From an uncultured archaeon (GTDB lineage: Archaea > CAYFZR01): a stretch of DNA of 64,000 nucleotides. A program made the translations under genes and the position numbers. Below the pieces are notes generated by a model. That model was not told the DNA's origin and did not search any database. It saw only the letters and a program-made list of their open reading frames with translations. This document shows, piece after piece, positions 2,852 through 63,978 of the stretch; within the stretch, counting starts at the first letter, position 1, and each line of letters starts with the position of its first letter. The stretch is taken from assembly GCA_964347835.1 (NCBI GenBank), contig CAYFZR010000065.1:19496-83495 (forward strand). The letters run 5' to 3'.

Positions 2852-3268
2852 TTAGAAGGGTCATGTCGTCAGAATTAACAATCGTTTTCTTATCAAAAAT
2901 AGTCATTCAAATGTCTTTTTTACCAACGAAGCCCAAACCATGATCTAAAATGAATTATCAGTAATTATTATAAAATCAAAAATCCTTATTTGGGTTCTAT
3001 TTCAAGAATTGGACTCTCTAGTTCATTTTCTGAATACAAAAAGGAAAATTTCATCTATATAGCTGATTATATCGGTAATTGTATTTAAACCGCAAAATAC
3101 TTATGTTTCGTGAAACTTAGTAAAAACACTTGGTGGGGGAGGACAGATAATATGTTTTTATTTTGAATCTGAATTAGCGTTGAAAACCTAGCATTAAACT
3201 TTTTTTAAATTTAACGCCAAGGAGGGGCGCTATGATAAAAATACTAATTAAAAGGGGAGGTGAAATAA

Positions 3269-3844
3269 ATGGAAATGTACAAAATGGGATTGATACTTTC
3301 ACTCCTGCTAATGATAGGATTAGTAGCAGGCTGTATTGGAGCAAAAGAGAAAGCGGCTGCACCCACGACACCAGCCATCCATGCTACAGGAAATATAGTC
3401 ACCATCATACCCTGCTCTGCCCCTGACGTGGATTGCATGTTCGAACAAAAATTCGGTGACGAGCTAATGAAGACCCGAAATCAATACAGTATATTTACGG
3501 GAACCATGGAGGGAACCGGGACCGGCGTGAATAGCCAATTAATAAACCTAAAGACGGGTAAAGCATTCAACTCGGCGTACGGTCACTTTGTCGGAACAGT
3601 GGGCGACTCAGAACCAGGCAGCTTCGCACGCTTCTGGACGTGGACCCTTGATATCCCAGCCTTACGTGGTGAAGAAGGTAATTACACGTGGGAAGGCTAC
3701 CATTGGGTTATCGAAGGCACCGGCATGGGTGGCCTGGAGGGTATCTGTGGAGGAGGAACCTTTGAGGGCTATGGTACGCCTGAGTTAGGCTTCACCACCA
3801 CCTATGACTTCGAGTTCCGCTTCGGCGAAGCTTGCAAAGAGTGA
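3269..3844 (+). CDS. Putative secreted lipoprotein, paralog 1 of a tandem pair
   Basis: 191 aa. Signal peptide with lipobox LVAGC. GGAGGTGA lies 7 nt upstream of the ATG. Confidence 0.6.
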   Translation: MEMYKMGLILSLLLMIGLVAGCIGAKEKAAAPTTPAIHATGNIVTIIPCSAPDVDCMFEQKFGDELMKTRNQYSIFTGTMEGTGTGVNSQLINLKTGKAFNSAYGHFVGTVGDSEPGSFARFWTWTLDIPALRGEEGNYTWEGYHWVIEGTGMGGLEGICGGGTFEGYGTPELGFTTTYDFEFRFGEACKE

Positions 3845-3912: not shown

Positions 3913-4158
3913 TAAAATACTAAACAGGATCTTAGGTTGAACTAATATCGGTAACTTTCACAAAATCGAAAATTACTTATATTTCGGAAAATACAAAGTA
4001 ATCTACCTTAATTTAGCGCCGATGGAGGGGGGCAGATAACATGTTTTATTTTAAATCTGAATTAGCGTAGAAATTCTGCTATTAATTATTTTTTTTAATT
4101 TAGCGCCGAGTGTGGGGCGCGATGATAAAAATACTAATTAAAAGGGGAGGTGAAATAA

Positions 4159-4728
4159 ATGGAAATGTACAAAAAGGGATTTTTGCTACTGTTAATGATA
4201 GGATTAGTAGCAGGCTGCATTGGAGCAAAAGAGAAAGCGGCTGCACCCACGACACCAGCCATCCATGCTACAGGACAGATAGTCACCATCATACCCTGCC
4301 AAGCCCCTGACGTGGATTGCATGTTCACCCACAAATTCGACAACGAGATAGTAGACACCCGAACTGCATACAGTATATTTACGGGAACCATTGAGGGAAC
4401 CGCGACCACAGTGCAGAGCCACACGCTAAACCTAAAGACGGCTAAAGCAATCGCCTCGGGGTACGGTCACTTTATCGGAACAGTGGGCGACTCAGAACCA
4501 GGCAGCTTCGCACGCTTCCAATCGGCTACTTGTGATGTCCCACGCTTACGCGGGGAAAAAGGTAATGTCACGTGCGAAGGCTACCTTCGGGTTATCGAGG
4601 GCACAGGCTTGGGTGGCCTGGAGGGTATCTGTGGAGGAGGAACCGAGAAGACCACGGGTTCGCCTGAGTTAGGCTTCACCACCACCTATGACTACGAGTT
4701 CCGCTTCGGCGAAGCTTGCAAAGAGTGA
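4159..4728 (+). CDS. Putative secreted lipoprotein, paralog 2
   Basis: 189 aa with the same signal peptide, lipobox and leader as paralog 1. A central patch diverges (FWTWTLDIPALRGEEGNYTWEGYHW versus FQSATCDVPRLRGEKGNVTCEGYLR). Confidence 0.6.
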   Translation: MEMYKKGFLLLLMIGLVAGCIGAKEKAAAPTTPAIHATGQIVTIIPCQAPDVDCMFTHKFDNEIVDTRTAYSIFTGTIEGTATTVQSHTLNLKTAKAIASGYGHFIGTVGDSEPGSFARFQSATCDVPRLRGEKGNVTCEGYLRVIEGTGLGGLEGICGGGTEKTTGSPELGFTTTYDYEFRFGEACKE

Positions 4729-6179: not shown

Positions 6180-6287
6180 TCAGTTCACCTCTGTTTGTAT
6201 TTTTCTGATTAGGATTTACCTGTATAAGAGTGTTACCTCAAAATCTTCTACCCTTATTAATAGTTTCTTTATTTTTCACATCCTTCT

Positions 6288-6523
6288 AGAAGGTGGTAAT
6301 ATTATACTTTATACTGAAATTATCTTATTCTAACCTATCACCCCCTCTCTACACCCCCATATAAAATTTAGAGTAGAGAACAAATATAGAGAAGAAAACG
6401 ACTCATTCGGTACCGTTAATAAAATAATTTTAGGTTAGTTATTATCTTTCTTTTGATCGAACTTTTTTTAAAAGTTCATTGCGGATGGAACGAGCCACAT
6501 TCCATAGCTAGCCACGTTCCATT
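6288..6523 (+). repeat. Copy A of a modular intergenic repeat family (P module + S module + hairpin H module)
   Basis: Contains agaaggtggtaatattatactttatactgaaatta..tatcaccccctctctacacccccatataaa..tttagagtagagaacaaatatagagaagaaaacgactcattcggtaccgttaataaaataatt..gaactttttttaaaagttcattgcggatggaacgagccacattccatagc. Near-identical to 31095-31392 and 56781-57047. Confidence 0.8.
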
Positions 6524-6853
6524 TTAAATAATCAAGTAATTCTCTATTTTTTCAAATATTTCCTCTAATTCATTTAGATCTTCGTCTCCGTTTAGATGGA
6601 ACTCGATGGTAAGGTCGTTTGCTCTCTTATCGTAATGTTTTACGTCTGCTTTTCTTTTCATTTTGTTTTCAAAGAAAGATTTGAGCTTTAATGCTTCCTC
6701 ACAAAAAGGCGTTATGGCCATAAATATGCCTTCAGGAGACACTGTCATGAAAAGAGATAATTCCTTGTTGTTGTATTTAAGATCAATAGAATATTGCACC
6801 ATGTTGGGATAAGGTGATAGCCTCCTTATATCGATGATTTCGATTGTTTTCAT
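6524..6853 (-). CDS. Hypothetical protein
   Basis: 109 aa ORF. Its stop codon abuts the hairpin end of repeat copy A. Confidence 0.4.
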   Translation of the reverse strand: MKTIEIIDIRRLSPYPNMVQYSIDLKYNNKELSLFMTVSPEGIFMAITPFCEEALKLKSFFENKMKRKADVKHYDKRANDLTIEFHLNGDEDLNELEEIFEKIENYLII

Positions 6854-9073: not shown

Positions 9074-9117
9074 AAGAATAAAAAATGATATATATTTGTT
9101 CAAACAGATTGTCAGAC

Positions 9118-9813
9118 ATGAAAAAAGCGATTATAATCTCATTGGTCCTTTTGGCTTGTATTGGTTCTGTAAATTCTGCAGAAATCGACTCTCTCTTCGT
9201 ATCAAACAATGTTGTTTACATCTTATCTGATGATACCTTAACTGCTTTAAGCGAAGATGGTATACTCCTCTGGAAAACTAGGGCTAAAAACATACTTACA
9301 AGAGCGAATGGAGTGTTGTATGTTGTTTCAGATGGTTATCTTAAAGCCTTAGATCAGTACTCTGGAGAGGAGATATGGAAACTAAATATAGTTCCCTCTT
9401 ACCTCAGATACTCCAACAACTTACTCTATGCATACAATGGAGAAAAACTCAAAGTTCTGGACAAGAGAGGTTTGAGTATGTGGGAGACGGATGCTAGTTC
9501 TGAACCATTATTTTCCTCCGGAATTATATACTTAAGATCTAATGGCGAAATTTTAGCCTTAAATCAATATACAGGGGAAATATACTGGAGTTTTAAGGAT
9601 ACGGGTTATCCTCTCTTCGTATCAAATAATGTTGTTTACATCTTATCTGATGATACTTTAACTGCTTTAAGCGAAGATGGTATACTCCTCTGGAAAACTA
9701 GGGCTAAAAACATACTTACAAGAGCGAATGGAGTTTTGTATGTTGTTTCAAATGGGTATCTTAAAGCCTTAGATCAATACTCTGGAGAGGAGATATGGGA
9801 AATTCTCGTTTAG
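9118..9813 (+). CDS. Secreted PQQ-like beta-propeller repeat protein with recent internal duplication
   Basis: The track ORF starts at 9085, but the signal peptide begins at the Met at 9118 (MKKAIIISLVLLACIGSVNSA). Repeats of the G.LYVVS.GYLKALDQYSGEEIW type. Confidence 0.6.
   Translation: MKKAIIISLVLLACIGSVNSAEIDSLFVSNNVVYILSDDTLTALSEDGILLWKTRAKNILTRANGVLYVVSDGYLKALDQYSGEEIWKLNIVPSYLRYSNNLLYAYNGEKLKVLDKRGLSMWETDASSEPLFSSGIIYLRSNGEILALNQYTGEIYWSFKDTGYPLFVSNNVVYILSDDTLTALSEDGILLWKTRAKNILTRANGVLYVVSNGYLKALDQYSGEEIWEILV
9189..9798 (+). repeat. Intragenic direct repeat: two near-identical segments of about 190 bp (9189-9378 and 9609-9798), period 420 bp
   Basis: ctctcttcgtatcaaa.aatgttgtttacatcttatctgatgata.cttaactgctttaagcgaagatggtatactcctctggaaaactagggctaaaaacatacttacaagagcgaatggagt.ttgtatgttgtttca.atgg.tatcttaaagccttagatca.tactctggagaggagatatgg occurs twice, differing at only a handful of positions. 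Confidence 0.85.
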
Positions 9814-16606: not shown

Positions 16607-16903
16607 GACCTTCAAAAAGGTCGATCATTTGGTCGAATTCGCTAACGCGAATTCAACAACTCAAATAGCAATAAACGTGCGATCTTCAAAACGCTCAACA
16701 ATCGAGGATTCTCGTGAGAGGTCGATCATTCGATAACATCGCAACCTTTTATAAAGGTTGAACAAAGGCACCACCTCCACCTTTTATAAAGGTGGAGCAA
16801 TGCTACTCCTGTTTGAGATGTTGAATTGCGAAGCAATTCGACCTGATGATCCACCTTTCAGAAGGTGGAATTCGACCTGATGATCCACCTTTCAGAAGGT
16901 GGA
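16607..16903. repeat. Array of about eight short hairpins/palindromes, including a 34-bp tandem direct repeat, directly upstream of tRNA-Ile
   Basis: cgacc-ttcaaaaa-ggtcg, gaattcgc-taac-gcgaattc, caacc-ttttataaa-ggttg, ctccacc-ttttataaa-ggtggag, gaattgc-gaa-gcaattc, and attcgacctgatgatccacctttcagaaggtgga x2 (16836-16903). Confidence 0.75.
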
Positions 16904-16907
16904 GGTT

Positions 16908-16982
16908 GGGCTCGTGGCTCAGACTGGTTAGAGCGTCCGGCTGATAACCGGGAGGTCCGGGGTTCAAATCCCCGCGGGCCCA
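16908..16982 (+). tRNA. tRNA-Ile (anticodon GAU)
   Basis: Cloverleaf read by hand: acceptor GGGCTCG/CGGGCCC, anticodon stem TCCGG/CCGGG with loop CTGATAA, T-arm CGGGG-TTCAAAT-CCCCG, discriminator A. CCA not encoded. Confidence 0.8.
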
Positions 16983-17088
16983 TCTAAACTTTATATCTGC
17001 TATTTTTAATTCTGGATAGATAAAACATTCGATATGTATCAAAAATATGATAAAACTATTTCGACTATGAACTATGAAGTTGAGTTAA

Positions 17089-30543: not shown

Positions 30544-31092
30544 ATGAAGAGAAATGTTAACACGTATTTGATGGTAATAAACATCGTCTTAATATTTTCA
30601 CTGGTATCCATGGGTGTATACTCCGGCATTCAGTACAAGCGAGTCAACAAGTTGATAGATGAACTTAACTCGCAGTCAGAAAATCTAATAGTTAGGTTGC
30701 AAGGTAAAGAAGAACAGTTCAACCTTACTTTAAAGACACTAAATATCACCGAAAGTAAGATAGAAGCGCTTAAAGAAAAATACACCAAATTAGATACTGA
30801 GAAGACGAACCTTGAAAAAGTACTACAAAGTACAGTAAACGATTTGGAAAAAACAAAATCTGACTTGAGAGACTTAAGGCAAGACTACAACGAAAAACTT
30901 ATTGAGATTGAGACCTTGAATGCAAGAGTTACAGCCTACAAAAGAGAAAACACCAATCTAAAAGAGTCTTTAAGACAAGTAACACTCGACCTTTATGTGG
31001 CAACAGAGGAAATAGACAATCTGCACGACAAAATAGATGATCTAGAAGAAGATTTAGCGGCTTGTAGAGCAGCGAGTCCACCTCCTCCATGA
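30544..31092 (+). CDS. Membrane-anchored coiled-coil protein
   Basis: 182 aa. N-terminal TM helix, heptad-rich body, PPPP C-terminus. The stop codon directly abuts repeat copy B. Confidence 0.45.
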   Translation: MKRNVNTYLMVINIVLIFSLVSMGVYSGIQYKRVNKLIDELNSQSENLIVRLQGKEEQFNLTLKTLNITESKIEALKEKYTKLDTEKTNLEKVLQSTVNDLEKTKSDLRDLRQDYNEKLIEIETLNARVTAYKRENTNLKESLRQVTLDLYVATEEIDNLHDKIDDLEEDLAACRAASPPPP

Positions 31093-31094
31093 TT

Positions 31095-31392
31095 AGAAGG
31101 GGGTAATAATACATTTTATACTGAAATTACCTTATCCTAACTTATCACCCCCTTTCTAAACCCCTATATAAGAGGAGAAGAGAATAACATTAATTTCATA
31201 ACGTAATTATCCTATCTTACCTTATTAACCCCTTTATACACCTCCATATAAAGAAGGGGGTAAATCACCCCTTTCTAAACCCCCATATAATATTTAGAGT
31301 AGAGAACAAATGTAGAGTAGAAAAGGACTCATTTGGTACCGTTCATAAAATAATTATTTATAATATTGCGGGTGCAGCGAGCCACGCTGCAT
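31095..31392 (+). repeat. Copy B of the modular intergenic repeat family (three P sub-modules + S module + hairpin)
   Basis: agaagggggtaataatacattttatactgaaatta...caccccctttctaaacccctatataa...cccctttatacacctccatataaagaagggggtaaatcacccctttctaaacccccatataatatttagagtagagaacaaatgtagagtagaaaaggactcatttggtaccgttcataaaataatt...ggtgcagcgagccacgctgca. Confidence 0.8.
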
Positions 31393-56183: not shown

Positions 56184-56314
56184 AAGAAATTTGAAGGTTT
56201 CGTCATCACGTCGATTGCTCTTTTATATTCTTTCATTTTTTAAAAAATTTTATAGATTATTTTTCTTTTCAAAATCAAAAAATAAATACGCAATAATTAT
56301 AGAGTGATATGTGA

Positions 56315-56611
56315 TTGTTAATGAGATTCAGCAAGCAGATGTTAAAAATCTTATTGGTTCTGAGGAAACATCCCGAAGGATTGACTGAAGAGAAGATAAT
56401 TGCAAGGGGGGAAAGATTAGATAAAACGGAAAATGTGCAACTTAGAGCTTTTAAGTCCAGATACAAAAAATCTATCGAAAAATTGGTTTCTCGAGGTCTA
56501 ATAATCAGAAAAAAGAAAAAGTTCAAACTTACGGGAGAAGGTATTGACAGAGCTCAAGAGGCTTACAGCGAAATTAAGGAGTATTTCAAAGAATATCAAC
56601 ATTTGATTTGA
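56315..56611 (+). CDS. Small basic winged-helix-like protein
   Basis: 98 aa (LKILLVLRKHPEGLTEEKIIARGERL). Confidence 0.35.
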   Translation: MLMRFSKQMLKILLVLRKHPEGLTEEKIIARGERLDKTENVQLRAFKSRYKKSIEKLVSRGLIIRKKKKFKLTGEGIDRAQEAYSEIKEYFKEYQHLI

Positions 56612-56780
56612 CAAAGGCGAAAATTTAGAAAAATCATATATTTCGGTTATTGCCGATCGTTGATCGTAAAAAATAAAAATAAATTGTTGATAATTAATTT
56701 TAGAGGGCTTGTGCCCTCTGCCCCCCCCATTTTTCAAGATTTTTCATTGTTTATCAATTAGGTGCAGTTTTTTGATTAAG

Positions 56781-57047
56781 CTTTTTTTAAAAGTTCAAAT
56801 GTAACGAGCCACGCTAGAAGGGGGTAATAATACATTTTATACTGAAATTATGCTATTTTACCTCATCACCCCCTTTCTAAACCCCCATATAAAGAAGGGG
56901 GCAATCGCCCCCTCTCTACACCCCCATATAATATTTAGAGTAGAAAAAGGCTCATTTGGTACCGTTTATAAAATATCTTTCTTTTGATTGAACTTTTTTT
57001 AAAAGTTCATTGCGGATGGAACGAGCCACGTTCCATAGCCACGCTGC
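56781..57047 (+). repeat. Copy C of the modular intergenic repeat family (half-H module + 2 P sub-modules + S module + full H module)
   Basis: ctttttttaaaagttcaaatgtaacgagccacgct-agaagggggtaataatacattttatactgaaatta...caccccctttctaaacccccatataaagaagggggcaatcgccccctctctacacccccatataatatttagagtagaaaaaggctcatttggtaccgtttataaaat...gaactttttttaaaagttcattgcggatggaacgagccacgttccatagccacgctgca. Confidence 0.8.
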
Positions 57048-57050
57048 ATT

Positions 57051-59045
57051 TTATTCATTTTCATTCGTTCTCAAGAGTTCTTTCGCTCTTCTCTCTTTGT
57101 ATTCATAGATGATATCCTCGATTGTGTCTAAATGTTCCATATCTTTTTGTTTTTTATCTTCCAATAGCCAATTCTCAATTTCTTTCTTGAAGAGTTCTGA
57201 ATCTATAACTGCAAAATCGTCAACATGTCTGAGTTTTACCTTATCAGGATCTATTATAGGAATATTCTCTTGTTTAAATACCTCTTCTGCTACGTGTGAC
57301 ATCCCTTTTTTCGCTATGATACATTTTGCGCCTTTCGCCAATGATTTTGCTGTGGAGGCTCCACCTCCACTCACATCCATAATGTATATAACATCGTTAG
57401 AGAGTCCAACTTGGTCTTTTAATTGTTTTATACAGTCTTTAGAGAATGTGTTCAGTATTTTAACTGGTTTTATCTTTTTTGAGGGTTCTAAAGAGTGAAT
57501 TCTTTTTAATCTTTGAAGTTCTTTTGCATATCTTGAGGATCTCTCCTTTTCCTTAATTATTTCTGTTTTTAAATCTTCAATCATTTTTTCTTTTGCTCTA
57601 AGAAGAGTATCTTTTCGTATCTCTATATCTTCCTCTTTTACGATTCTTTCGAGTTTTATTTGTAACTCATTTTTCTCAGAAATTATTTTCTCCTTTTCTT
57701 CTATTAAAAATACGTTTTCTTCCTCTAATCTATCAATTCTCTTTTCTAATTTCTTAATTTTGTTTATAAAATCTTTCAAATCATCTTTTTCTGGGTGCTT
57801 CTCCACTACTTTCTTTGTTTTCTCTTTTTTCTCGGTTACCATATTGACAGCATCTCTCAGCGTGTAGCCTTTTATCGTTAGTTCCTTTATTTTATTAACG
57901 TCCCCCTTGAAACCAATATCTTCTAGTTTACTACTTATCTGTAAAAATTTATTTTTATAAGAATTAAATGCCTTGATGGCAGCTGCTAAAGAGTCTCTCT
58001 GATGGGAATCGTTGGGAGGATGTATTTTCTCTTCCATTATGTAAGCGTTGACAATTTCCCTCTTATCCTGTACGCTTAGTTGATCGTGAGAAATCAACTT
58101 AGCATTAAATATTGCTGATATCTTTTCAATCTGTTTTGGAGGAGGGTGGATATCTGTTGTTACTATCACAGGAGTGCCGAATTTTCCTACAAAATTTATT
58201 ATGTCGCTTCTTGACATATTTTTCATACTTTTGATGGATAAAAGGCGACCATTGAGATCAAGTATTGATAAACCCGTTGTCGTTCCAGGATCTATTCCCA
58301 CAATCAAAGGAGAAGATTGTTTTCTCTTTTCAAATGTTTTCATTCTTGTTGGTTTTACTGTAACCCTGACGTCAGGACCTTTTACTTCTCTTAAAAACTT
58401 CTTAATCTTAGGGTAGGTTGCATAAGCAGTAAATTCGCTTCTAGAATATCCTTGATCTTTGGTTTTAATATTTAAGTCATAGTCAATACTTTTTTCATCT
58501 AAGTTTCGTTTAACCTCTCTTGTAACCTGCTGGATCAGATTGTGAATCTTTCTTCTGTATCTTGCTTGGCTAAATCCCCCCGGTCCAATGCTTCTTGCTC
58601 TACTCACAATGATTTTGGTAGCGTCTTCAATTTGTGCTATTTCTGTTCCTATACCCTTATCTGCGAGTAATGCACATACACAGGCTTCTTCTAATGAAGA
58701 AGCCCTCTCTCCGAGATGGATTCCATATTTTTTAGCGATTTTATGCAGGGGAATTTGTTTCCCAAATGTGCCAGTTACTTGGACGATTCTGGTTTCTGGA
58801 GATAAATTATCCAAAAAACGTTTCAGGCGCCTCCTGTTAGGTACTAATTCATATACGTTATCCGTGGCGAGTATATTCGGCTTTTCTTTGTAAATTAGCC
58901 TTAAAAGTTTGTGATAGCTGACTCTTTCAAAAGAAAAAACGACGCTACCATCTTTTACTCCAACGGCAGAGAAGTATGGTTGTCTTTTTCCTCTAATTGA
59001 GCCGTATACAACATCGACTCCTACTGTGCGCAAATATACCACCAA
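57051..59045 (-). CDS. Archaeal COG2433/DUF460-type protein: RNase H-fold (RuvC/YqgF-like) domain plus long coiled coil
   Basis: 664 aa. IVGIDPGTTTGLSILDLNGRLL (RNase H-like first strand), central Lys/Glu-rich coiled coil, conserved N-terminal domain. Confidence 0.55.
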   Translation of the reverse strand: MVVYLRTVGVDVVYGSIRGKRQPYFSAVGVKDGSVVFSFERVSYHKLLRLIYKEKPNILATDNVYELVPNRRRLKRFLDNLSPETRIVQVTGTFGKQIPLHKIAKKYGIHLGERASSLEEACVCALLADKGIGTEIAQIEDATKIIVSRARSIGPGGFSQARYRRKIHNLIQQVTREVKRNLDEKSIDYDLNIKTKDQGYSRSEFTAYATYPKIKKFLREVKGPDVRVTVKPTRMKTFEKRKQSSPLIVGIDPGTTTGLSILDLNGRLLSIKSMKNMSRSDIINFVGKFGTPVIVTTDIHPPPKQIEKISAIFNAKLISHDQLSVQDKREIVNAYIMEEKIHPPNDSHQRDSLAAAIKAFNSYKNKFLQISSKLEDIGFKGDVNKIKELTIKGYTLRDAVNMVTEKKEKTKKVVEKHPEKDDLKDFINKIKKLEKRIDRLEEENVFLIEEKEKIISEKNELQIKLERIVKEEDIEIRKDTLLRAKEKMIEDLKTEIIKEKERSSRYAKELQRLKRIHSLEPSKKIKPVKILNTFSKDCIKQLKDQVGLSNDVIYIMDVSGGGASTAKSLAKGAKCIIAKKGMSHVAEEVFKQENIPIIDPDKVKLRHVDDFAVIDSELFKKEIENWLLEDKKQKDMEHLDTIEDIIYEYKERRAKELLRTNENE

Positions 59046-61239: not shown

Positions 61240-61297
61240 TTTATTTCAGTATAAAATTATTCTTAATAAATTAGCGTGTGCAGCGAGCCACGCTGCT
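61240..61297. repeat. Partial copy D of the repeat family: inverted P-module fragment plus CGAGCCACG hairpin
   Basis: tttcagtataaaat is the reverse complement of attttatactgaaa. gtgcagcgagccacgctgc is identical to the copy B hairpin. Lies directly after the stop of the 61302-61778 gene. Confidence 0.6.
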
Positions 61298-61301
61298 TAA
61301 C

Positions 61302-61778
61302 TTATCTTCTCTTTCTTGCTTTAACGTGGATAGACCAGCCGAATAAATTTGGAAACCAGTTATAGTAAAATCTGTCATAATCCTTTACATATGTAGGATC
61401 GAACCCAACAAGTCTTAATACTTTCATTAAATCCTTTGGGTGTACTAATTTCGTGTGATAAGGGTTCCAACCGCTTTCCCATTGAATTTTACCTAAAAGA
61501 TATAATATTTTTCGTCTAACGGTGAACATATTCGGCGTTGTGAATTCCAAGATTCCGTCGGATTTTAATATTCTAAAGCATTCTCTGAAGAAATCAATGG
61601 GATGTATCGTAAGATGTTCTAACAATTCAAATGCTAGGATATATTCACAAGAATTATCCTCGAAGGGATAAGGAGTAACGTTTAGATCTAATATTCTATC
61701 CGGCTCAAAATCCGGGTTTATATCTATGTTTATAAACCCTTCTCTCTTTTTCAATCCGCAACCCAGATTTAATTTCAT
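61302..61778 (-). CDS. Class I SAM-dependent methyltransferase
   Basis: 158 aa. Motif I LNLGCGLKKREGFINIDI. Confidence 0.7.
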   Translation of the reverse strand: MKLNLGCGLKKREGFINIDINPDFEPDRILDLNVTPYPFEDNSCEYILAFELLEHLTIHPIDFFRECFRILKSDGILEFTTPNMFTVRRKILYLLGKIQWESGWNPYHTKLVHPKDLMKVLRLVGFDPTYVKDYDRFYYNWFPNLFGWSIHVKARKRR

Positions 61779-63264: not shown

Positions 63265-63978
63265 TCAGAGAAAGTCTTTCTCTAATTTTGCCATCTTTTT
63301 TATCAGTTCAGACGTATCTATCAGGTCCTTCACGCTGGAAGAACTAACTTTAAGTAGTCTTACGGTTTCTATGGCTGTGAAAAAAGACCATAGGTCTTGA
63401 TCTAGATCATACATTCTAATTTTATTTTTAAAATCGCCGATAGTCTCTTTTTCTAAGAGATTTTTCCTCTCGTCATTTAGTTTTGATGATAAAATCTCTA
63501 TACCTTTGCTTATTATCTCACCAATTATCTCTTCTGAAATAATGTTTTCCGGGATTTTAATTTCCCCAATAAACTTATTATCTTCTATATCTTCTTTTGA
63601 AAATTCTAATAAGCCTTTTTTACTTAGTACAGTAAGCATGGAAAACTTTAGAGCCCATTCATGAAGATTTACCAAGAAATTCATTTCTTCCCTTCTAAAA
63701 TATGGAACAACCTCGTACCTTCCGAAATCTTCTCTGCTTTTTTTTACGTCCTCAATAGCTCCAATAATGACGCCTTTTGCTTTTTCTTCGTCTATATATT
63801 TTGTTAAAAAATCTTTTAGACTCTTTCCAATTTTTTCAATCAATAACTTCGAAAAATCGTATTGTTCTTTTGGAAAAGATAATTTAGGCATGTTCTCTAT
63901 CACATCATAACATACAGCAAAATCTTTTATCAATCGAGAAACAGAATCATTTATATCTTCATTAATCGTTGAATACAT
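63265..63978 (-). CDS. Hypothetical protein
   Basis: 237 aa helical ORF. First gene of the minus-strand block 63978 to 60387. Confidence 0.4.
   Translation of the reverse strand: MYSTINEDINDSVSRLIKDFAVCYDVIENMPKLSFPKEQYDFSKLLIEKIGKSLKDFLTKYIDEEKAKGVIIGAIEDVKKSREDFGRYEVVPYFRREEMNFLVNLHEWALKFSMLTVLSKKGLLEFSKEDIEDNKFIGEIKIPENIISEEIIGEIISKGIEILSSKLNDERKNLLEKETIGDFKNKIRMYDLDQDLWSFFTAIETVRLLKVSSSSVKDLIDTSELIKKMAKLEKDFL

Follow-up and report, generated by a model that had tools for sequence, protein, structure and literature searches.

The small non-autonomous repeats of bacteria have been studied in detail; those of archaea are poorly catalogued, and for the uncultivated Hydrothermarchaeota lineage we found none catalogued. 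The archaeal precedent is provided by the PATEs of Haloquadratum walsbyi and other haloarchaea and by the small mobile repeats that invade them, i.e., heterogeneous elements that end in palindromes, lack inverted terminal repeats (ITRs) and undergo repeat-mediated deletions of the core, their palindromes being invaded by smaller repeats (PMC3119063). In bacteria, REP palindromes are preserved by compensatory changes within mosaic BIMEs (PMC2817692), and these REP/BIMEs are accompanied by RAYT transposases (PMC2817692; PMC3733652). Examples of MITEs are the Correia/NEMIS elements of Neisseria and the SM elements of Sulfolobus (PMC2229807).

The repeat considered here is a non-coding, hairpin-rich interspersed element that lies at the ends of genes; its host lineage, close to the Hydrothermarchaeota, is archaeal and uncultivated. 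Three full copies and one scrambled fragment are found in the 64-kb stretch of DNA analysed (the window; Table 1), and elements across the family measure about 210-330 bp. Its likeness is greater to the small mosaic or mobile repeats known from bacteria and archaea than to a conserved small-RNA gene. Like the PATEs, it is archaeal, non-coding, too short for a transposase and devoid of inverted terminal repeats; its palindromes lie near the termini (nearer at one end), and its heterogeneous copies are linked to a short terminal oligonucleotide. Internal deletions via repeats, smaller repeats within near-terminal palindromes that create conglomerates, and strain-specific insertions beside shared copies are also common to both. 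It differs from them in that mostly the right end alone has the AGCCA palindrome, the two ends being unlike, and in the TTTA found at either junction of copy 3, target duplications being absent from PATEs. The sequences are not similar, the host belongs to another phylum, and no autonomous partner with matching ends, such as the IS605-type (TnpA/TnpB) transposon of the same genome to which PATE palindromes and ends are related, was seen in the window or in the other loci fetched.

With REP/BIMEs the family shares extragenic imperfect palindromes (21 nt here, 20-40 bp in REPs) kept by compensatory mutations, mosaic composites with other short motifs and a variable number of modules, a position just downstream of genes, genome-specific palindrome variants, and roles suggested for them in ending transcription and in the stability of mRNA. 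Neither GTAG nor CGTC is found on either strand at the foot of the hairpin, unlike in REPs; the conserved flanks are TTGCGG(A/G)TG before it and AG/TA after it. The hairpins do not alternate in orientation but are direct, the AGCCA loops of one element all pointing in the same direction (doubled hairpins included), the host is archaeal, and no RAYT gene was seen in the loci examined; REPs exceed 100 copies per genome, where a RAYT gene is flanked by the same palindromes. Reminiscent of MITEs are the size (under 300-350 bp), the A+T-rich, non-coding sequence, the TA that flanks all copies (uninformative at 36% GC), the existence of an empty and a filled site, the insertion near or into gene ends and the presence of promoter-like motifs and RNA hairpins within the element. 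However, the element ends, TAGAAGGGGG.. and ..CGTTCCATTTTA, have no inverted-repeat relation, the sole inverted ends being the 5-bp TGCAG/CTGCA of the composite copy 3; the module order is directional and not symmetric, and target duplication is uncertain. The MITE-like repeat proposed in the initial annotation is supported as a mobile and mosaic element but, lacking terminal inverted repeats, not as a classical MITE. Suyama, Lathe and Bork are said to have reported in 2005 the palindromic repetitive elements MJRE1-3 of Methanocaldococcus jannaschii (cited in PMC2229807). The elements of that study are reportedly also dispersed palindromic extragenic repeats of a thermophilic euryarchaeon with low identity among copies, and occasionally insert into coding regions without destroying the gene. 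We know of no modular P-S-H order (head and C-rich units, S module, hairpins) and no AGCCA hairpin among their features.

A non-coding composite repeat family in more than one genome

The stretches in the window are real copies of one non-coding composite repeat family. The initial annotation had described three intergenic copies with the same module order, plus a fragment, and a repeat search recovered the shared modules: in all full copies a head with C-rich units is followed by the purine-rich S module and then by hairpins. The head and C-rich unit are 87-90% identical between window copies over 78 nt, and the S module 88-91% over 43-88 nt; copies 1 and 3 share a hairpin block with 97% identity over 66 nt. 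The S core CTCATTYGGTACCGTT has three exact matches in the window, one in each copy, and four matches when up to three mismatches are allowed (0.63 expected). Nothing else in the 64 kb matched beyond the three copies and the fragment, and the window contains five hairpins. Copies from other genomes align to those of the window with E-values of 1e-28 to 4e-68.

Table 1. Position of the repeat copies, their modules and their junctions within the window. The near-terminal AGCCA hairpin is the TTGCGGATG-hairpin.
Feature	Position	Strand	Remarks
Copy 1, full element	6287-6526	+	orthologous site in relative occupied
Copy 1, head TAGAAGGTGG..TTTATACTGAAATTA	6287-6338		
Copy 1, C-rich unit ATCACCCCCTCTCTACACCCCCATATAA	about 6337-6364		single
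Copy 1, S module	6365-6426		
Copy 1, A/T hairpin GAACTTTTTTTAAAAGTTC	6459-6477		
Copy 1, AGCCA-loop hairpin	6485-6505		half-repeat of same hairpin 6506-6522
Copy 1, terminal TTA	6524-6526		stop codon of minus-strand gene 6524-6853
Copy 2	31094-31392	+	orthologous site in relative occupied
Copy 2, head	31094-31145		
Copy 2, C-rich units (three)	31146-31171; 31174-31251; 31252-31290		second is a degenerate long unit, third a short hairpin unit
Copy 2, S module	31291-31352		
Copy 2, AGCCA-loop hairpin GTGCAGCG-AGCCA-CGCTGCAT	31372-31392		
Old gene-end remnant TCATTGTTTA, left of copy 3	56753-56762		
Copy 3, composite	56762-57050	+	site empty in four assemblies of relative
Copy 3, left partial hairpin block	56770-56813		A/T hairpin and half AGCCA hairpin
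Copy 3, head	56815-56866		
Copy 3, long C-rich unit	56867-56892		
Copy 3, short hairpin unit GGGGGCAATCGCCCCC	56893-56931		
Copy 3, S module	56932-56975		18-nt deletion
Copy 3, A/T hairpin	56990-57008		
Copy 3, AGCCA hairpin	57016-57036		half-repeat 57037-57049
Copy 3, right junction	57051-57053		DUF460 stop codon
Scrambled fragment	61243-61299	+	
Fragment, head core TTTTATACTGAAAT	61243-61256	-	exact 14-mer, inverted
Fragment, S-tail-like ATAAAATTATTC..			
Fragment, AGCCA hairpin GTGCAGCG-AGCCA-CGCTGCTT	61278-61298		

Several boundaries and features had to be revised. Copy 3, originally placed from 56781, actually starts at about 56762-56770, with a partial hairpin block before the head. The H module attributed to all three copies is indeed present in copies 1 and 3 but not complete in copy 2, where the A/T hairpin GAACTTTTTTTAAAAGTTC is missing. 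The T-tract reported to follow the CGAGCCACG hairpin amounts merely to T4 in copies 1 and 3 and, for copy 2, to a T5 located nine bases further downstream; the strongest run of T (T7) is the loop of the first hairpin. Along these lines, the intrinsic terminator that had been read on the plus strand at the right-hand hairpin was not recovered, as a consensus scan called no terminator-like site there in any copy.

In agreement with the earlier statement that no ORF explains the copies, none of at least 20 aa is common to those of the window. A 12-codon minus-strand ORF of the S module, MS(R/P)FLLYICSLL, is alike in copies 1 and 2; it was discarded because copy 3 has a truncated version and the relative no intact one. 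A known RNA family was not found either: at gathering thresholds Rfam recognised only two tRNAs in the whole window, and a relaxed search over copies 2 and 3 gave chance-level matches (E of at least 0.15, far under the gathering scores). The gene contexts are different, as had been claimed, with a weak YdjM/DUF457 match, a coiled-coil protein, a weak wHTH match and DUF460 (COG2433) as flanking genes; Pfam assigned approximately 40 window ORFs to housekeeping genes or to no family. Since the flanks are unrelated housekeeping genes, and similarity ends at the ends of the element, the copies are not a segmental duplication. Neither are they CRISPR leaders, the C-rich units being contiguous or irregular and without spacers, with no cas genes among the annotated ORFs. 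Replication-origin ORB repeats, att sites, a retron and an omega-RNA were also considered and rejected, no partner gene or motif being present.

The family is multi-locus, occurs in more than one genome and has no coding capacity. In the metagenome assembly JABAOF01 it is found at five further loci, all with unrelated housekeeping genes as neighbours and three of them at contig ends. It is also present in a relative with approximately 80% DNA identity (GCA_046760505.1), in which copies 1 and 2 each have an orthologue at the corresponding site, both of these at contig ends. Assemblies of these other genomes break inside the element, and the family marks break points of short-read assemblies of these genomes. 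The family is probably specific to the lineage. Viral contigs scanned for S, hairpin and head patterns contained no match, or chance matches only, in coding sequence of AT-rich viruses, and phage and plasmid collections yielded no blastn match to the element. A 16-mer of S, too short a query, returned 112 chance matches and no real copies from genome contigs.

Conserved hairpins, mosaic structure and the sites of the copies

Each copy is assembled from a G5/C5 hairpin unit ending in CCCCCATATAA, the purine-rich S module, an A/T hairpin with the T7 loop and the hairpin with the AGCCA loop; in the JABAOF01 organism there is an extra hairpin module, X, inserted at two different places. The AGCCA loop of the near-terminal hairpin is invariant, and the distance from this hairpin to the right end is 0-5 nt in every copy. 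The C-rich units number one to three per copy, the A/T hairpin is present or absent, and a left-end hairpin block occurs only in copy 3 and in the copy at locus L115. The deletion in the S module of copy 3 lies between two TAGAGTAGA direct repeats and is also seen in L119, the A/T module interrupts the 5' arms of hairpins after TGCAG (on the left of copy 3 and in L117), and the head core is inverted in the fragment. Even orthologous copies of the window and the relative differ by whole modules; the orthologue of copy 2, for example, possesses an A/T hairpin and a compensated stem. The copies differ by gain, loss and nesting of whole modules and by one inversion.

Covariation, which the initial annotation suggested testing, supports the local AGCCA hairpin; an overall structure conserved on one strand was not found. 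Of the aligned cells of this hairpin 91% pair, compared to 26-50% in slid controls, and its covariation score was reached by none of 500 shuffles. Two stem positions show double compensatory changes (C-G/G-C 7:6 and A-U/G-C 9:3). The three hairpins seen in the relative all have GCAACG/CGTTGC stems, and those of the window have GGAACG or GCAGCG, orthologous sites included, and such genome-specific variants even at orthologous sites point to concerted evolution. Conservation of structure is limited to local palindromes, predicted transcripts folding inconsistently, and the two strands behave alike: fold z-scores are -3.6 vs. -3.7 for copy 3 and -2.5 vs. -2.1 for copy 1, and the G-U and A-C counts in the AGCCA hairpin are 8 vs. 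7, without strand preference. With these counts a first impression of strand-specific G-U pairs was dropped. Two other candidates were abandoned as well: a long-range pairing between the G5 run of the head and the first C5 run is not kept in copies 1, L115 and L117, and the GGTACC palindrome of S, a possible protein site, is lost in the relative.

Evidence for movement of the element comes from the site of copy 3, which is filled in the window and empty in four assemblies of the relative. There the DUF460 gene is 3-4 codons longer, and what is left of that stop can be seen in the window on the left side of copy 3. We conclude that copy 3 was inserted into the final codons of the DUF460 gene, although a single filled/empty pair could formally reflect a precise deletion in the relative. 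As for the target-site duplication that was to be looked for, TTTA is found on both sides of copy 3 and once in the empty site, which is weak evidence because the genome has 36% GC. PATEs are inserted 3' of a fixed target of 4-6 nt; in the present family left flanks end in NTA and right ends are (T)TTA, ATA or CTA, with one empty site for comparison. Copies 1 and 2, on the other hand, occupy the same sites across approximately 20% DNA divergence, so that most copies are old and stable, and not visibly mobile.

The position relative to genes is rather constant. Of 8 independent sites, 7 have a convergent gene whose stop codon is overlapped by the hairpin end or lies no more than 5 nt away from it. 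Flanking genes run against the head-S-hairpin direction in 12 of 14 cases; the site-level orientation bias (7/8) is by itself not significant. Copy 2 begins 1 nt past the TGA stop of a plus-strand gene (30544-31092), and the fragment, within a 4.2-kb block missing from the relative, stops 5 nt short of the stop codon of a minus-strand gene (61302-61778).

A probable mobile mosaic repeat and the competing readings

With moderate confidence, we regard the family as a non-autonomous mosaic repeat, similar to PATEs, BIMEs or MITEs, that has spread at the DNA level and carries promoter-like and oligo-T signals. The element would be propagated and homogenised as DNA, non-autonomously, with new copies inserting where T/A-rich sites occur at the very 3' end of a gene, and with the end that bears the AGCCA hairpin adjoining the stop codon. 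Recombination or conversion at the palindromes that resident copies share would then cause their modules to be swapped, lost, duplicated and nested. Because compensatory changes keep them, the hairpins would have to form as single strands, and the near-terminal one is most likely a recognition structure for a transposase provided in trans, putatively an IS200/IS605-type or RAYT-like HUH enzyme by analogy with the PATEs of archaea and the REP/BIMEs of bacteria. The window, the annotated loci of the relative and the JABAOF01 flanks contained no transposase of any kind, and the left and right terminal hairpins are unlike in most copies, which departs from the IS200/IS605 pattern. An inserted element would fill the spacer between co-directional genes and probably serves as, or is tolerated because it brings, transcription stops for either direction (a T7 on one strand; on the other, T-rich tracts together with a GC hairpin followed by T) and TATA-like boxes, so that some copies may also yield a short RNA. 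Transposase type, single-stranded intermediate and any transcriptional role are what we infer from the sequences.

The initial annotation had also offered paralogous small-RNA genes, which are neither demonstrated nor favoured here; a conserved family of this kind is less supported than the mobile repeat, and we consider it unlikely. Such genes would be read from left to right, starting at the A of ATCACCCCC under a TATA box in the head (TTTTATAC) and ending at T7 or after the AGCCA hairpin. The box is located exactly 22 nt before ATCACCCCC/ATAACCCCC in copies 1, 2, 3 and L117, it resembles the tRNA-Glu promoter of the window (TTTTTATAAAT), and the spacer between box and start is the most variable part of the head; in copies 1 and 3 the same strand has T7 further downstream. 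Yet the box is absent in L119 and degenerate in L117, T7 exists in some copies only, and in the fragment the 'promoter' is inverted and immediately followed by T6. In this reading the C-rich 5' part AUCACCCCCUUUCU, one mismatch away from the anti-Shine-Dalgarno-like CACCUCCU, would pair with G-rich ribosome-binding sites, and some window genes do have GGAGGTGA-type sites. That copies 1 and 2 have been kept at their sites in a relative of approximately 80% identity would also fit small-RNA genes, but C-rich units differ in number and whole modules come and go, orthologues included, S is poorly preserved in the relative (GGTACC included), the predicted transcripts fold weakly and inconsistently, neither folding nor G-U use shows strand asymmetry and there is no Rfam match. 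A bolder version, which we deem highly improbable, sees in the element a self-propagating promoter-RNA-terminator cassette: each insertion would be a new small-RNA gene whose 5' end AUCACCCCCUUUCU mimics the anti-Shine-Dalgarno end of the 16S rRNA, the dispersed copies would act as copy-number-tunable translation regulators or sponges for ribosome-binding sites, and bidirectional stops would insulate the neighbours.

Reading the element on its minus strand, in the orientation of the flanking genes, leads to an intergenic cassette domesticated by the host, a possibility we find rather improbable. The AGCCA hairpin after the stop codon would protect or terminate the upstream mRNA, the T-rich S and the GC hairpin with its T tract would stop transcription, and TTTATAT boxes beside the G5 runs would restart it for the downstream gene. 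The gene orientations and stop codon contacts described above (12/14 and 7/8) agree with this, the only terminator-like calls within elements are the minus-strand G5/C5 hairpins, and such roles are known for bacterial REP/BIMEs (PMC2817692). The L119 element fills essentially all of the 226-nt spacer from a DUF2226 gene to a radical-SAM gene and places a consensus CTTTATATAAT box approximately 57 nt upstream of an in-frame ATG with a GGGAAG ribosome-binding site. Against it, copy 2 and its orthologue are oppositely oriented, between two plus-strand genes, the minus-strand T runs are just T4, the relative lives without the element at the DUF460 site, the 7/8 bias is not significant alone and the stem makes no strand-specific use of wobble pairs. 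The observation of one copy every 25 kb or so is correct for the window (24.8 and 25.7 kb), and could evoke chromosome-architecture sites bound by a nucleoid, topoisomerase or SMC-type protein, a function that has been suggested for some bacterial BIMEs; BIMEs of E. coli bind gyrase and IHF (PMC2817692). We give this hardly any credence: the spacing has a post hoc p of only approximately 0.04 for three random points, and periodicity was discarded as a feature since it is not conserved in the relative, where copy 3 is missing and the surrounding 22 kb contain no copy. An 81.6-kb contig in a short-read MAG that otherwise breaks at elements also argues against strict periodicity, and the hairpin covariation implies a single-strand structure and not a duplex binding site.

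The family would provide a clean case of three different hairpins visibly kept by compensatory change while the surrounding modules reshuffle, and could readily be used to type strains and to date insertions. Should a HUH-type transposase that matches the element be found, single-strand transposition of the REP/RAYT-PATE kind would reach another archaeal phylum, and new small RNAs would be gained if the copies proved to be transcribed. The habit of landing at stop codons, together with one remodelled protein C-terminus, illustrates how the ends of genes and the signals between them are reshaped by such elements in archaea with compact genomes.

Modules of the element and their distribution

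Reading of the three intergenic copies confirmed the common module order described in the initial annotation. Each copy opens with a head, TAGAAGG(G/T)GGTAATA..TTTATACTGAAATTA, which is followed by C-rich units ending in CCCCCATATAA (one in copy 1, three in copy 2, one of them degenerate, and two in copy 3), a purine-rich segment, S, that ends in CTCATTYGGTACCGTTNATAAAATA, and, as the last module, a hairpin block. In the repeat search the window copies were 87-90% identical over the 78-nt unit of head and C-rich sequence and 88-91% in S, and the hairpin blocks of copies 1 and 3 were 97% identical over 66 nt. A 16-nt core of S has one exact match in each of the three copies and, with up to three mismatches, four matches where 0.63 were expected. 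Queries with all the elements (blastn-short) retrieved nothing else from the window but part of the scrambled fragment. As had been proposed, no ORF lies behind the elements, none of at least 20 aa being common to the copies.

Other details of the annotation had to be amended. Copy 3 starts at about 56762-56770 rather than at 56781, with a partial hairpin block ahead of the head, and the hairpin pair ascribed to every copy is incomplete in copy 2, from which the A/T hairpin is absent. No + strand terminator was called by the consensus scan at the right-hand hairpin, read earlier as one; the T-tract behind the CGAGCCACG hairpin is only T4 (in copy 2 a T5, nine bases away), and the longest T run, T7, is located in the loop of the A/T hairpin.

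Positions of the elements and of other features mentioned in the text
Feature	Sequence	Positions
Copy 1	window	6287-6526
Copy 2	window	31094-31392
Copy 3	window	56762-57050
Scrambled fragment	window	61243-61299
Fragment match (blastn-short)	window	61278-61298
Former end of the DUF460 gene	window	56753-56762
TAA at right junction of copy 3	window	57051-57053
GC-rich hairpin, C-run and T5	window	56693-56727
Segment absent from relative	window	56210-56630
Winged-helix ORF	window	56315-56611
4.2-kb block absent from relative	window	59100-63200
Gene whose orthologue adjoins DUF460 in relative	window	63265-63978
Tandem paralogous genes	window	3156-3844, 4044-4728
Beta-propeller gene	window	9085-9813
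Direct repeat in beta-propeller gene	window	9191-9381, 9611-9801
Region upstream of tRNA-Ile	window	16737-16902
tRNA-Ile	window	16907-16984
Module X	L115	13880-13925, 13985-14040
Module X	L113	1-20
DUF2226-family gene	L119	2-787
DUF2226-family gene	L113	168-779

A metagenome scan with a 22-nt S pattern recovered five genuine copies, all in JABAOF01 contigs (loci L113, L115, L117, L118 and L119), and two chance matches in a coding region. The element is the sole sequence these contigs share with the window, and its neighbors there are unrelated housekeeping genes (pyrF, MutS-like, radical-SAM, DUF2226, ArsR- and BlaI-type regulators). Three of the five copies are at contig ends, as expected of a multi-copy repeat. 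Two different DUF2226-family genes have their stop codons abutted by two different copies.

The window itself is ordinary archaeal chromosome, with genes for, among others, A-type ATPase subunit C, formylmethanofuran-H4MPT formyltransferase, a MoxR/VWA cluster, ThiN, a CLC channel, PCMT, a beta-CASP nuclease and ribonucleotide reductase; the nearest proteins in the database carry the label Candidatus Hydrothermarchaeota (82-91% identity). The copies are separated by 25-kb blocks, three in all, that are mutually unrelated, which excludes a segmental duplication, a scenario named beforehand as one that would undo the repeat family. Duplications of other kinds do occur. Two tandem paralogous genes of 191 and 189 aa, neither with a Pfam match, have upstream regions, ribosome-binding site included, that are likewise duplicated (80-87% identity), and a PQQ-like beta-propeller gene contains a 191-nt direct repeat, 96% identical, near which a contig of the relative GCA_046760505.1 ends. 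Upstream of tRNA-Ile a perfect 34-nt tandem duplication (AATTCGACCTGATGATCCACCTTTCAGAAGGTGG twice) ends 4 nt ahead of the gene, and in front of it stand two hairpins, each centred on a palindromic TATA box (CAACCTTTTATAAAGGTTG and CCACCTTTTATAAAGGTGG); this region also contains TGATGA .. CAGA, and might represent either an atypical leader or promoter of the tRNA or a small C/D-like RNA.

Compensated hairpins and module shuffling

The AGCCA hairpin has an 8-bp stem, an invariant loop and a conserved TTGCGG(A/G)TG ahead of it. Across 13 instances 91% of the cells are paired, against 26-50% in slid controls, two positions in the stem have undergone double compensatory changes (C-G/G-C, 7:6; A-U/G-C, 9:3), and none of 500 shuffles reached its covariation score. 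The short C-rich unit is itself a hairpin, GGGGGTAATTACCCCC, which in copy 3 and L119 carries a compensated change (GGGGGCAATCGCCCCC), and the variable T/C of CCCCCT(T/C)TCT falls at the predicted bulge. The A/T hairpin, GAACTTTT-TTT-AAAAGTTC, also has a compensated variant, AAAACTTTTT..AAAAAGTTTT, in L118. The two strands have the same folding z-score (copy 3, -3.6 and -3.7; copy 1, -2.5 and -2.1), the AGCCA stems contain G-U and A-C mispairs in equal measure (8 vs 7), and predicted + strand transcripts have weak folds that differ between copies. The structure therefore resides in the palindromes and neither strand can be called.

The AGCCA stems are GGAACG/CGTTCC in copies 1 and 3, GCAGCG/CGCTGC in copy 2 and the fragment, and GCAACG/CGTTGC in all three hairpins seen in the relative, whose DNA is about 80% identical to the window and collinear with it. 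This difference persists at orthologous sites with conserved flanks, which indicates that the copies are homogenised within a genome. Orthologous copies also differ by whole modules: the relative has an extra S-tail and hairpin unit at the copy 1 site, and at the copy 2 site the A/T hairpin missing from the window. In copy 3 (left) and L117 the A/T module splits hairpin 5' arms behind TGCAG, one and a half hairpins stand at many right ends, and in both copy 3 and L119 a deletion between TAGAGTAGA direct repeats has removed 18 nt from S. The fragment holds an exact 14-mer of the head core, inverted and immediately followed by T6, beside a hairpin. JABAOF01 copies have an additional module, X (CCAAAATCaaaGATTTTGG..GCCAATAATCTTCGATTA), a hairpin of about 50 nt not found in the window copies; it is present in L113 and twice in L115, ahead of the head and within the head loop, and looks like a still smaller mobile unit. 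Such shuffling, nesting, deletion and inversion of modules is the behavior of recombining or mobile repeat DNA.

Insertion sites and gene context

In the relative the copy 1 site is occupied, a contig beginning within the element just beyond the 3' end of the orthologous 109-aa gene, and so is that of copy 2, where a contig ends within the element and the right flank aligns with the window. The copy 3 site is empty: in four independent assemblies the spacer is 177 nt long and holds no trace of the element, and the DUF460 (COG2433) gene ends ...NENSSKL-stop. In the window the old last codons and stop (TCATTGTTTA) lie to the left of copy 3, the gene ends ...NENE-stop with a TAA created at the right junction, and both junctions carry TTTA. 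Judged from this alignment, an insertion of about 290 bp, left partial hairpin block included, into the 3' end of the DUF460 gene is more parsimonious than a precise deletion in the relative.

A segment of about 420 bp with a small winged-helix ORF (98 aa) is absent from the relative, and the conserved spacer of about 130 nt between it and copy 3 makes it a second, independent indel of that intergenic region. A GC-rich hairpin with a C-run and T5 behind it (AGAGGGCTTGTGCCCTCTGCCCCCCCCATTTTT) is kept in the relative with a compensated change near the loop; it is terminator-like on the + strand, yet the relative has no + strand gene ending at this point. The fragment lies within a 4.2-kb block (339-aa gene, hexapeptide transferase, methyltransferase, 440-aa gene) wholly missing from the relative, where the DUF460 gene adjoins the orthologue of the gene at 63265-63978; the block is probably a variable surface-glycan island.

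At seven of eight independent sites (copy 1 with its orthologue, copy 3, the fragment, L113, L117, L118 and L119) the right-hand hairpin has its final base no more than 5 nt from the stop codon of an opposite-strand gene, or overlapping it, the exception being copy 2 with its orthologue. Flanking genes are opposite in strand to the head-to-hairpin direction in 12 of the 14 known cases, and the element usually occupies the spacer between two co-directional genes. In gene orientation the order is stop codon, hairpin, T-rich S, GC hairpin with T tract, TATA-like boxes and next gene; in L119 the element fills almost all of a 226-nt spacer and its CTTTATATAAT box precedes the likely start of a radical-SAM gene by about 57 nt. 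On the other strand, TTTTATAC in the head, similar to the window's tRNA-Glu promoter, stands exactly 22 nt ahead of ATCACCCCC in four copies, a spacing that fits an archaeal promoter, with T7 downstream on the same strand. From these motifs, candidate transcription signals in both directions are plausible.

Nature of the element

Two readings had been offered, paralogous structured small RNAs or a MITE-like mobile repeat. The module-level shuffling is not what a structured RNA gene under purifying selection would show, and searches of Rfam matched no family. The mobile option is the better of the two, although not as a classical MITE, since the element has neither terminal inverted repeats nor a clear target duplication (PMC2229807). 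Against mobility stand the lack of transposase or integrase matches among the annotated window genes, the single polymorphic site (copy 3) and the stability of two copies over about 20% divergence. A mobile cassette seeding anti-Shine-Dalgarno-like small RNAs seems very improbable.

No relatives of the element were found in phage, plasmid or viral-contig collections. The MJRE elements of M. jannaschii, as described, are of a similar kind. The best archaeal counterpart is the PATE class of Haloquadratum, taken together with the small repeats that have inserted into PATE palindromes: both lack inverted terminal repeats and have near-terminal palindromes, heterogeneous copies with repeat-mediated core deletions, nested conglomerates and strain-specific insertions (PMC3119063). 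Bacterial REP/BIMEs share the compensated palindromes, mosaic build and location after genes, whereas their GTAG tag and alternating orientation are missing here (PMC2817692).

The element is thus most likely a non-autonomous composite interspersed repeat, spread and homogenised as DNA. A need of its hairpins to form in single-stranded nucleic acid would explain why they are kept. By analogy, propagation would most likely involve recognition by a trans-acting single-strand (HUH/Y1-type) transposase; this enzyme, a single-stranded intermediate and any transcription of the element are inferred. Copies would most likely persist at gene ends through a bidirectional insulator or terminator role, with incidental promoter activity. 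Elements of this kind are already known, and the lineage that hosts this one is poorly sampled among archaea.
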